64,000 bases of DNA. It comes from Planctomycetota bacterium. Its GTDB lineage: Bacteria; Planctomycetota; MHYJ01; WSZJ01. Location of the stretch: NCBI GenBank assembly GCA_038060895.1, contig JBBTCT010000020.1, forward strand, positions 48,506-112,505, in the 5' to 3' direction. The position numbers and the translations under genes are program-made. The stretch's first letter is position 1, and every line of letters begins with the position of its first letter. A model generated the notes under the pieces. The model searched no databases and had not been told where the DNA came from. It worked only from the letters and a program-made list of their open reading frames with translations. Positions 44,500-47,471 of this stretch are shown here, piece after piece.

Positions 44500-44826
44500 A
44501 TGCCCTCTCCCCAACCCACCGGCCCTCGCCGTCTCGGCGACTACATCAAGTTCTTCCTGAAGAAGAACGGCCTCGACACCACTGTCAAGGTTCTCGGTGT
44601 AGGCAAGGCGTGGGCCGAGGCCGTCGGCGACGCGCGCCTGCTCGCGCACACTCGCCCCGGGACGGTCCGCTCGGGTATCCTGAAGGTCGTCGTGGACGCG
44701 CCGGTCGTCATGCAGGAGCTCAATTTCCGCCGGCGCGAGCTCGCGAAAAAGGTCGCCGAGCTGGCGCCGACTTCGGGCGTGCGGGATCTGAGATTTGTCA
44801 TCGGCAGCATCGAGGGCACAAAGTGA
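44500..44826 (+). CDS. dciA: DciA/DUF721 family helicase-loading factor
   Basis: AWAEAVG...[22 protein letters not shown]...VRDLRF; typical position upstream of gyrB. Confidence 0.85.
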
Positions 44827-47471
44827 CGAAGCCGGACCTGGCGAAAATCTGGGCGGACGCAGTAGGCGAAGAACTCGCGAAAGAGTCGCGTCCGGTGGCC
44901 ATCGCCGCGGGCGTGCTGGGCATCGAAGTCGACAGCGCGATGGGCCTGCAGAAGATCGAGAAGGTAAAGCCGGAGCTTCTGGCGAAGCTCATCGCCTCCG
45001 GCGCGCTGGTCGGCGAGCTGCGTTTCACGATGAAGGAATTCACCGTCGAGGCGCAGAACACCGACGCGGACGACTACGGCGCTTCGTCGATGAAGATCCT
45101 GGAGGGCCTCGACGCGGTGCGGAAGCGTCCCGGGATGTACGTCGGCGATACCGGTGTGAGAGGGCTGCACCACCTGGTGTTCGAGGTCGTGGACAATTCG
45201 GTGGACGAGGCGCAGGCGGGGTTCTGCAAGAGCGTGCAGGTGAAGATCAACACGGATGGCTCGCTGACGGTGATCGACGACGGGCGAGGCGTGCCGACGG
45301 ATATCCACAAGGAGTCGGGGCTGTCGGGCGTGGAGCTGGCGTTCACGAAGCTGCACGGCGGCGGGAAGTTCGACAAGAACTCCTACAAAGTGAGCGCGGG
45401 GCTGCACGGCGTCGGCGTGAAGGCCGTCAACGCGCTGTCGGAGTGGCTCGAGGTCGAGGTCTGGCGCGGCGGCAAGGAGCACTTCCAGCGGTACGAGCGC
45501 GGCGAGACGAAGACGGCGCTGGAAGCGCGCGGGCTGACGCAGCGGCGCGGGACGAAGGTGACGTTCAAGCCGGACCCGACGATCTTCCTGGAGACGACGA
45601 CGTTTTCGCGGGACCTGCTGGCGAAACGGCTGCGGGAGCTGGCGTTCCTGAACAAGGGGATTTCGATCTCGATCGCCGACGAGCGGACCGGCGAGAGCGA
45701 GACGTTCAAGTTCGACGGCGGGATCCGGGCGTTCGTGCAGCATCTGAACGAAGCGCGGAAGCCGCTTCATTCGGACGTGATCTACTTCGAAAAGTCCGAG
45801 TCGTCGGGGATGACGATCGAGATCGCGATGCAGTACAACGAGGGGTACAACGAGGCGGTCTTCAGCTTCGCGAATTCGATCAACACGCACGACGGCGGGA
45901 CGCATTTGAGCGGATTCCGCAATGCGCTGACGCGGACGTTGAACGCGTATTCGCGGAGCCACGAGTTCGTGAAGGTGGACGCGCAGCTGCCGAGCGGTGA
46001 GGACTACCGCGAGGGGTTGACGGCGATCGTGAACGTGAAGGTGCCGAACCCGCAGTTCGAGTCGCAGACGAAGGTGAAGCTGACGAACACGGAGGTCGAG
46101 AGCTTCGTCACGACGGTCACCAACGAGCAGCTCGGGACGTATCTCGAGGAGCATCCGGCACAGGCGCGGCAGATCGCCGAGAAGGCGCTGATTGCGGCGA
46201 AGGCGCGCGAAGAAGCGCGGAAGGCCCGGGAGCGCGCGCGGGCCGGCGCGCTGTCGGGAACGAAGCCCGGCAAGCTCGCCGACTGCCAGGAACGGGACAT
46301 GACGAAGTGCGAGATCTACATGGTCGAAGGCGACAGCGCCGGTGGCAGCGCGAAGCAGGGGCGCGACCGGCGCACGCAGGCGATCCTTCCGCTCAAGGGA
46401 AAGATCCTTAACGTCGAGAAGGCGCGCATCGACAAGATGCTCGAGCACGAGGAAATCCAGGCGCTCATGGGCGCGATCGGAACCGGGATCAAGGACGAGT
46501 TCGACTACTCGAAGCTCAAGTACGGCAAGATCATCATCATGTGCGACGCCGACGTCGACGGCTCGCACATCAGGACGCTTCTGCTCACGTTCTTCTTCAG
46601 GCAGATGCGCGAACTCGTGGAAAAAGGCCACATCTACATCGCCTGCCCTCCCCTGTTCCGCGTCGCGAGAAAGTCAAAAGTCGAGTACGTCCGCAGCGAG
46701 AAGGAGATGGACACGACGCTTCTCAACCTTGGCGTCGAAGGCGCGAAGTTCCGGCGTGGAAGCGATAACAAGGAATTCGTGGGAGGCGACCTGAAGGACC
46801 TGATCGCGCGGCTGACGCGCCTGGACGACCTGGGGAAGGGCCTCGCGCGCCGCGGGATCGACCCGGACAAGTACCTCGAGTTGAAGAACGCCGAGGGCAA
46901 GCTGCCGATCTACCGCGTGGTGTACAAGAAGGCAGACGAGTTCCTCCGCAGCGAGGAGGAGCTGAACATGTGGATCCGCGACAAGCGGGAGGAGATCGGC
47001 AAGGAGCTCGTCGTGCTCGACAGCGACCTCGGCGAGAAGGCGGAGGACGCGGAGGAGTACGAGCTGCGCGAGATCCACGAGGCCGCGGAGATCGAGAAGG
47101 AGCTCCAGGGCCTCACGTTCGCGGGCTTCCGCGTCGAGGACTACCTCGGCGCACCCGGCGCGGACAAGTTCTTCCTGAGCACCGACGGCGAGACCAACCA
47201 GGTGAATTCGCTGAAGGACCTTATCAAGTCGCTCCGGAAATCCGGCAGCAAGGGCATCGACGTGCAGCGGTACAAGGGTCTCGGTGAGATGAACCCCGAC
47301 CAGCTCTGGGAAACGACGATGGATCCCAAGACGCGGACGTTGTTGAAGGTGCGGCTCGAGGACGAGGTCAAAGCCGACGAGATGTTCACGGTGCTGATGG
47401 GCGAGGAAGTGGAACCGCGGCGGCTGTTCATAGAGAAGCACGCGCTTGAAGTGAAGGTGCTGGACGTCTAA
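44823..47471 (+). CDS. gyrB: DNA gyrase subunit B with N-terminal DciA-like extension
   Basis: [63 protein letters not shown] 44823 overlaps the dciA stop (alternative start ATG 45030). Confidence 0.95.

Follow-up and report, generated by a model that had tools for sequence, protein, structure and literature searches.

The only DNA gyrase B subunit (GyrB) found in the genome of an uncultured planctomycete begins with a second, shortened copy of DciA, the protein encoded by the gene immediately upstream. The stretch in which this gene lies, hereafter the window, comprises 64,000 nucleotides of a Planctomycetota bacterium (GenBank assembly GCA_038060895.1, contig JBBTCT010000020.1, positions 48,506 to 112,505). 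It has a guanine-plus-cytosine (G+C) content of 67% and holds a replication-origin gene cluster made up of dnaA, dnaN, an open reading frame (ORF) of 358 amino acids (aa), a complete dciA gene (dciA1) and the fusion gene D2-gyrB, where D2 denotes the second DciA domain. We find that the fusion gene is real and that D2, as judged from alignments and a tree, is a lineage-specific, 5'-truncated duplicate of dciA. The explanation that best accounts for the observations as a whole, namely that this truncated duplicate was fused to the sole GyrB and acts there as an adaptor, has in our estimate an even chance of being correct. The features on which the argument depends are the following.

44500..44826, + strand: dciA1, a complete, domain-only ("Group 4") DciA of 108 aa; matches PF05258, N-terminal helix present
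44812..44816, + strand: GAGGG, a Shine-Dalgarno-like motif in the tail of dciA1, six bases 5' of the GTG; read from the sequence
44823..44826, + strand: GTGA overlap, in which the GTG of the fusion gene (44823-44825) shares bases with the dciA1 stop
44823..45029, + strand: D2, a 69-aa truncated DciA/DUF721 domain forming the GyrB N-terminus; matches PF05258, modeled as helix-strand-strand-helix-strand
45030..45032, + strand: ATG, codon 70, the putative ancestral GyrB start, now internal
45030..45077, + strand: predicted acidic linker of 15 residues, running into the GyrB N-terminal arm up to Tyr85; placed from model confidence and the starts of the NCBIfam models
45030..47471, + strand: complete GyrB, 813 codons plus stop; matches TIGR01059, NF011501 and four Pfam domains
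44823..47471, + strand: the whole fusion gene D2-gyrB, 882 aa, its frame open from the GTG to the stop at 47469-47471

A second DciA domain is fused in frame to the only GyrB

An earlier reading of this locus from the letters of the sequence, the first-pass annotation, had described a dciA gene ending in GTGA whose GTG at 44823, preceded by GAGGG, opens a stop-free gyrB frame, with about 70 residues resembling the upstream DciA placed ahead of a normal GyrB start. All of these coordinates hold. The dciA1 stop is the TGA at 44824-44826, ATG 45030 is codon 70 of the fusion and is followed by the usual GyrB N-terminus, and the gyrB frame stays open further 5', as far as 44610. The suspected resemblance was borne out by a hidden Markov model search: translated on its own (44823-45029), D2 reached 41.9 bits with the DciA/DUF721 family PF05258, whose cut-off is 24 bits (E-value 1.2e-10, profile positions 25-89 of 89), while the same domain scored 37.4 bits within the 882-aa protein and 43.4 bits in a whole-genome scan. 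D2 is 35% identical to dciA1, which itself matches PF05258 over residues 12-99 (E-value 9.5e-12, profile positions 2-89 of 89).

The remainder of the protein is a complete GyrB. It exceeds the cut-off of the TIGR01059 gyrB equivalog model (921.3 bits over residues 85-882, cut-off 882.4) and scores 1043.8 bits with NF011501, and the NCBIfam GyrB models begin at residues 78-85 of the fusion protein. The Pfam domains HATPase_c, DNA_gyraseB, Toprim and DNA_gyraseB_C all match in that order, and ParE models score under their cut-offs. In its own genome, an assembly of 47 contigs that is 86.5% complete, the fusion protein is the only match to PF00204, there is one GyrA (a single PF00521 match of 529.7 bits, on contig C40), and dciA1 and D2 are the only DciA domains above cut-off. 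With one GyrB and one GyrA in the genome, the fused protein is therefore the housekeeping subunit.

The fusion is conserved and under purifying selection across the genus

Residues 1-166 of the fusion protein were used as the query in a search of 40 genomes of relatives plus the genome itself. In all eight genomes of the genus, this one included, the match ran from residue 1 or 2 to residues 163-166 with no stop, and identity to the seven congeneric relatives was 70-94%. Outside the genus, matches in this search covered the GyrB part alone or passed through one stop, the latter indicating a separate dciA directly upstream in those genomes. The fused architecture is also found in five protein clusters from NCBI, ENA and JGI (P0003 to P0007, 882-894 aa), all of which carry PF05258 plus GyrB domains with no stop; relatives of the fusion protein are named Planctomycetes or Planctomycetota bacterium by NCBI.

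The start of D2 is conserved together with its coding sequence. GTGAC is present in 8/8 genus genomes, as is a purine-rich, GGAGG-like motif 4-9 bases 5' of the GTG. Four genomes have this motif within dciA1 itself, as part of its coding sequence, and the other four have it in a spacer of 28-29 bases. Likewise, the GTG overlaps the dciA1 stop in four of the eight, and the remaining four have a TAG stop followed by the spacer of 28-29 bases. At one locus of the genus, L003, a gyrB-frame stop lies six codons 5' of the GTG, and therefore no earlier start is possible there.

Two members of this set have features of their own. At L003 (genome G004), about 420 bases 5' of the D2 start, an unrelated open frame stands in place of the 5' half of dciA1, which reflects either a chimeric contig or a real truncating rearrangement; D2-gyrB is intact. 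The most distant fused relative, P0007 (894 aa, JGI), is 62% identical over residues 1-110 and was called from a TTG 12 codons further 5'; it has neither the VT start motif nor the N-terminal helix. As P0007 is without the VT motif, the D2 start is not fixed across the wider clade.

The ratio of nonsynonymous to synonymous substitution rates (dN/dS) was calculated over the eight genomes. Its median was 0.20 for D2 (28 pairs), compared to 0.225 and 0.165 for the first and second segments of GyrB and 0.295 for dciA1, and variable columns in D2 were distributed 31/27/59 over the three codon positions. In a frame control on six gap-free genomes (15 and 14 pairs), dN/dS was 0.15 in the reading frame and 2.08 and 2.44 in the other two. 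D2 is thus under purifying selection as a protein, and in the gyrB frame only. A stop-free frame of this length is, taken alone, what chance would give: of the 69-codon stretches in the six frames of the window, a fraction of 0.498 is open. What goes beyond chance is the family match, the conservation in 8/8 genomes and the dN/dS in that particular frame. Since D2 is constrained in frame and no stop precedes gyrB, it must form the N-terminus of GyrB. Residues 1-69 are very probably translated as part of GyrB, and translation probably begins at GTG 44823, coupled to dciA1.

DNA contigs of another study (X3) are identical to the window over 44701-45206 and cover both junctions, including the 45000-45060 region for which the first-pass annotation had wanted sequence support, with no stop or frameshift. 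The tandem DciA arrangement that it proposed, with the second copy fused to GyrB, thus stands on the family match, the eight genomes, the selection and independent DNA contigs.

D2 has the DciA core and lacks the known loader elements

D2 belongs to the DciA/DUF721 family on its profile match, and its predicted fold is KH-like. AlphaFold models were built from shallow alignments (30 rows for D2, 27 for dciA1). The D2 model is helix-strand-strand-helix-strand, with a predicted local distance difference test (pLDDT) of 73-85 over residues 1-72, and the dciA1 model (mean pLDDT 80.2) shares this core and has an extra N-terminal helix at residues 12-22. The best Foldseek match to the D2 model is 7ykm, the DUF721 domain of Deinococcus radiodurans DciA (E-value 1.3e-4, template modeling (TM) score 0.68 on the target, root-mean-square deviation 2.3 over 69 columns, 29% identity), followed by Vibrio cholerae DciA from a DnaB complex (8a3v_C). 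The dciA1 model also finds 7ykm first in the PDB (E-value 4.6e-5), then 8a3v and DnaA domain I, and a profile search of PDB sequences also retrieves 7ykm (E-value 1.3e-10).

Several elements of DciA have been kept in D2. A tryptophan (W10 of D2) is invariant in 30/30 aligned sequences, and G15, R23, L32 and V36 of D2 are nearly invariant. In M. tuberculosis DciA this tryptophan is needed for normal replication, and it is placed like the partner-contacting phenylalanine of DnaA domain I, according to the accessible part of Blaine et al. (2022; bioRxiv 10.1101/2022.01.24.477630).

Other elements are missing. The N-terminal DciA helix is absent from D2 by profile start, model and alignment, and is present in dciA1. 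No helical lasso or extension was found on D2, there being nothing before the domain and the GyrB start following directly after the last strand; in the aligned regions, dciA1 and the 12 outgroup DciAs are likewise without an extension. The N-terminal helix of V. cholerae DciA (T9/I13) is described as a wedge that enters a cracked DnaB interface, and when it is mutated the N-terminal domain loads the helicase very poorly (PMC13696075); for the Caulobacter and M. tuberculosis proteins, the extension or lasso is described as the DnaB-docking element. D2 has also lost the basic character of the family: the core carries a net charge of -1 (n = 8, range -2 to 0), where dciA1 has +6 (n = 7) and the outgroup DciAs have +3.5 (n = 12), and in the second long helix other residues stand in place of the basic FRR(R) motif. 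That the core is not basic argues against simple DNA binding. D2 itself is probably not a helicase loader.

Origin of the fused copy and its distribution in the phylum

A tree was built from 27 DUF721 sequences over about 100 columns, leaving out the broken L003 dciA1 and using twelve outgroup loci that each have one separate dciA. D2 forms one clade (support 100/98) and dciA1 another (91/88), and the two group together, with modest support, against the 12 outgroup DciAs (90/79). The stem of the D2 clade is long, at 1.26 compared to 0.35 for dciA1. The start of D2 aligns with an internal valine of DciA, as seen when the D2 start of the window (VTKPDL) is set against the corresponding stretch of dciA1 from L007 (AVTKPDF).

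These observations place the origin in the ancestor of the genus, in which a dciA lying, as is normal, directly 5' of gyrB was duplicated in tandem. The upstream copy, dciA1, remained a complete, basic, domain-only DciA. The downstream copy lost its first 28 or so codons, and with them the N-terminal helix, and the GTG of an internal valine became the start; loss of its stop and of the spacer let it read straight into the gyrB start codon.

In a search of 401 Planctomycetota genomes, four of them from this genus, stop-free matches over both the DciA and GyrB parts occurred only in those four among the matches listed (150 of 448). In 19 of the same 150 matches, dciA is in frame with gyrB and parted from it by only one or two stops (for example in G046, G008, G051, G019 and G350), and the fusion step is therefore an easy one, a single stop loss away in many planctomycetes. 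A PF05258 scan of the 401 genomes was unusable for counting fusions, since the matches listed (150 of 354) included none of the fused copies from the genus. A word-index search with dciA1 returned 11 close relatives only.

These searches also brought up other long or composite frames. Among the matches listed in the PF05258 scan, five genomes of family f34 (G229, G116, G244, G302 and G330) have DciA matches inside open frames of 554-650 aa, which may be long extensions, other fusions or mere G+C-rich open frames. A representative protein search with residues 1-110 gave 946 matches, the 150 best of which were nearly all short GyrB N-terminal fragments. Ten proteins from it were scanned with Pfam, and only P0124 and P0131, both from other lineages, run from DciA into GyrB: P0124 (271 aa) has a DciA match of 41.6 bits, a spacer of about 100 residues and then a GyrB N-terminus, and P0131 (215 aa), a low-quality sequence, has a DciA match of 20.5 bits, below cut-off, ahead of a GyrB N-terminus. 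We did not accept these two as further fusions, as they are possibly read-through gene calls or independent stop losses.

D2 as a possible adaptor between gyrase and the replicative helicase

The N-terminal arm of GyrB and its tyrosine reach across into the ATP site of the partner subunit. In the model of the fusion, residues 74-96 have a pLDDT below 50 and the linker is acidic, such that D2 would hang on about 15 flexible acidic residues ahead of Tyr85 of this arm, at the ATPase gate. From this placement it follows that a gyrase A2B2 tetramer would bear two D2 domains beside its N-gate. As a protein adaptor, D2 might keep gyrase at DnaB, or at a complex of DnaB with DciA1, at the origin or at the fork. 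On this proposal, the domain would have given up the wedge helix and its positive charge and retained the tryptophan and the fold; because the DciAs of this lineage have no extension, it is the DUF721 domain itself that would have to contact DnaB here. We give D2 about one chance in three of being such an adaptor to DnaB or DciA1, neither loader nor DNA binder.

The DnaB gene of the same genome (L021:913-3591, contig C2) carries a 421-aa intein, inserted between ...ADLRE and SGAIEQ... within one 892-aa frame, which splits the DnaB_C profile at positions 197/198.

Because of this intein, D2 residues 1-75 were modeled with two copies of the unspliced DnaB N-extein (384 aa), using no DnaB alignment. 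The mark used for such complexes was reached by 58/80 solved complexes and 2/110 mismatched pairs. D2 with DnaB scored 0.36 (runs of 0.36, 0.36 and 0.00) and the best of three controls 0.00, on a scale where 7/80 solved complexes and both of the passing mismatches reached the mark with 0.60 or under. Agreement between runs was at least 0% of contacts, with a partner pLDDT of at least 67. This weak prediction is the sole direct support for the adaptor, and it raises the odds only slightly.

A number of points weigh against the explanation as a whole. The complex score falls in a range in which wrong passes outnumber right ones, and one run in three gave 0.00; the DnaB that was modeled ended at the intein and had no alignment behind it, and the pass may reflect memorization because a similar complex (8a3v) has been solved. 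D2 is without both of the known DnaB-contacting elements of the DciAs studied to date, the wedge helix and the lasso, and no contact between DciA and gyrase was reported in the literature searched. The grouping of D2 with dciA1 has modest support on about 100 columns. The conserved ATG 45030 could also, or even mainly, yield an untagged GyrB. Lastly, metatranscriptome contigs bridge the junctions with identical sequence (X11 at 44575-44874, X8 at 44881-45074), and they give only a hint that dciA1 and D2-gyrB are co-transcribed because their depth is low and such libraries may contain DNA; the uncovered stretches of 44300-45500 in these contigs carry no evidential weight.

The first-pass annotation had suggested that the fusion tethers gyrase to DnaB or to DNA at the fork. 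The DNA half of this suggestion fits poorly with a core charge of -1. The DnaB half has the absence of wedge and lasso against it and is weakly favored by the complex score (0.36, control 0.00) and by the retention of the invariant tryptophan. The strongest form of the idea, that a wedge-less DUF721 domain hard-wires the sole gyrase to the replicative helicase, directly or via co-translated DciA1, we regard as tentative and, on balance, doubtful.

Other explanations for the fusion

The alternative that survives best, although we consider it rather unlikely, concerns the product and not the function. Starts at both GTG 44823 and ATG 45030 would give a mixture of D2-GyrB and plain GyrB, so that only some gyrase molecules, or only one of the two B subunits, would bear D2, an arrangement that is compatible with the other readings of function. 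The methionine at ATG 45030 is conserved in 8/8 genus genomes and in P0007, the codon sits exactly where the GyrB of relatives begins, and the NCBIfam GyrB models start at residues 78-85. However, no conserved Shine-Dalgarno-like motif was seen before this ATG, the upstream codons varying at synonymous sites, and a scan with the sigma-70 consensus found no promoter-like site inside D2; the methionine may also be conserved merely as a residue.

It is unlikely, to a somewhat greater degree, that D2 serves as a DNA-binding module, in which case binding of single-stranded DNA (ssDNA) by DUF721 would help gyrase to capture or hold ssDNA or the T-segment at the N-gate or at an unwound origin. The T-segment enters gyrase through the N-gate, and D2 would lie beside this gate. 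The accessible part of the report on Caulobacter DciA assigns ssDNA binding by its DUF721 domain to Arg106, supported by Leu119, and finds it needed for loading (PMC12547741); in D2, R23 is nearly invariant and the hydrophobic residues L32 and V36 are kept, the equivalence of R23 to Caulobacter Arg106 being only putative. Set against this are the core net charge of -1 (compared to +6 in dciA1 and +3.5 in the outgroups), the replacement of the basic FRR(R) motif in the second long helix and the acidity of the linker.

Less probable again is a role confined to gyrase, in which D2 would dock on GyrA or on the ATPase domain of GyrB and tune how the N-gate closes or how ATP is turned over, the replisome playing no part. 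The domain is joined on 15 residues before the arm and Tyr85, which reach the ATP site of the partner, its loader features are lost, and a long stem followed by strong conservation fits a new function. Yet the linker is predicted to be disordered (pLDDT <50), and this explanation leaves the dciA1 neighborhood, with its overlap of stop and start, unaccounted for.

That D2 is a decaying remnant, in frame by chance as a by-product of high G+C with GyrB starting only at ATG 45030, is very improbable and close to refuted: open 69-codon stretches are common (0.498), the gyrB frame is open upstream to 44610 and the ATG is conserved, but dN/dS is 0.15-0.20 in frame and above 2 in the others, the Pfam match exceeds its cut-off, the fold is confidently predicted, the GTG and its ribosome-binding-like motif occur in 8/8 genomes, and neither stop nor frameshift interrupts the eight genomes or P0003 to P0007. 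An assembly or sequencing artefact, in the form of a stop or frameshift missed before 45030, might be suspected from a fragmented assembly of 47 contigs and 86.5% completeness, but it is refuted by the agreement of eight separate assemblies and five protein clusters (NCBI, ENA, JGI) and by X3 DNA contigs that cover 44701-45206 with zero differences.

Gene neighborhood

The other genes of the replication-origin cluster lie upstream of dciA1 on the same strand.

39467..40837, + strand: dnaA; Pfam Bac_DnaA (E-value 2.1e-66) and Bac_DnaA_C (E-value 1.9e-24)
41117..42364, + strand: dnaN (beta clamp); three DNA_pol3_beta domains match
43351..44427, + strand: 358-aa ORF between dnaN and dciA1, in the usual position of recF

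The 358-aa ORF at 43351-44427 has no Pfam or NCBIfam match. We did not identify recF at the locus, and the SMC_N-type matches of the genome are on other contigs. Downstream, gyrB is followed by a MoCF_biosynth (molybdopterin-binding) gene at 47609-48127 (+ strand) and not by gyrA. Neither a sigma-70-like promoter nor a plus-strand terminator-like site was found in 44200-45300, and predicted RNA structure at the GTGA junction is not unusual (z 0.92); in a planctomycete, neither of these findings is decisive.

Significance

Among the genomic signs that two machines cooperate, "Rosetta stone" gene fusions rank with the best. No report of gyrase being physically connected to the DciA/DnaB loading system was found in the literature searched. 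In this genus it is the only GyrB that bears the link, purifying selection maintains it, and the DciA domain concerned is stripped of the known loader parts. If the hard-wiring of gyrase to the helicase were true, the removal of supercoils would be tied physically to the loading of the helicase and the progress of the fork. The fusion would then be a natural tether between gyrase and the replisome, and would show the DciA fold in a second use, one other than loading. These statements concern one uncultured lineage and an architecture already in print, and the function is one that we infer. The fusion is a clean natural construct with which to ask what a bare DUF721 core binds and whether gyrase can be recruited to the helicase, and domain-only DciAs are called "a mystery" in the accessible part of Blaine et al. 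(bioRxiv 10.1101/2022.01.24.477630).

Comparison with known systems

The DciA-GyrB architecture is not new, because two planctomycete DciA-GyrB fused proteins are listed by Blaine et al. (2022; bioRxiv 10.1101/2022.01.24.477630), which overturns the first-pass annotation's statement that it knew of no described fusion of this kind; within the excerpts of the literature searched, this is the sole mention. As given there, the two proteins have the same domain set as the window gene (PF05258, PF02518, PF00204, PF01751 and PF00986), come from the same phylum and are likewise single fused proteins, and the window gene conforms to that architecture, with PF05258 and then the GyrB domains in one planctomycete frame. 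Their two accessions differ from those printed for the relatives found here. The accessible part of the preprint gives the architecture only, with nothing in it on truncation, a second dciA, conservation, selection or function. What is added here is that the fused domain is a wedge-less, charge-neutral duplicate that evolved fast and then slowly, that a complete dciA1 with overlapping stop and start lies directly upstream and the fusion is on the only GyrB, and that the fusion is under purifying selection and confined to one genus in the samples searched.

A separate dciA next to gyrB is the ancestral state and is seen in the outgroups. The available part of Brezellec et al. (2016; PMC5109545) places dciA between recF and gyrB in many phyla, Planctomycetes included. 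With the canonical DciAs of V. cholerae, Caulobacter crescentus and M. tuberculosis, D2 shares the DUF721/KH-like core, the tryptophan and the adjacency to gyrB; unlike them, it has no wedge helix or lasso, is neutral or acidic and is covalently joined to GyrB. From Met70 on, the window protein is a complete GyrB above the equivalog cut-off, and it differs from an ordinary bacterial GyrB in having a 69-residue folded domain ahead of the N-terminal arm.

Within DciA, the nearest class is Group 4, defined in the accessible part of Blaine et al. (bioRxiv 10.1101/2022.01.24.477630) as DUF721 with fewer than 14 flanking residues. dciA1 fits this class, as do the outgroup DciAs, and D2 derives from such a gene, whereas D2 has no first helix, sits on a longer branch (1.26 vs 0.35) and is not free-standing. 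A more distant likeness is to DnaA domain I, a hub for protein interactions with DnaB among its partners (Blaine et al., bioRxiv 10.1101/2022.01.24.477630, in the part available). The D2 model matches this small KH-like fold weakly (4tps, E-value 2.6e-2, TM score 0.54 on the target), but D2 is not a member of that sequence family, and DnaA domain I heads an initiator and not a topoisomerase. Finally, the actinobacterial DciA dyads described in the accessible part of Blaine et al. (bioRxiv 10.1101/2022.01.24.477630) likewise consist of two adjacent DciA domains that arose by duplication; there, both domains lie in one protein, whereas here dciA1 is separate and D2 is fused to GyrB.

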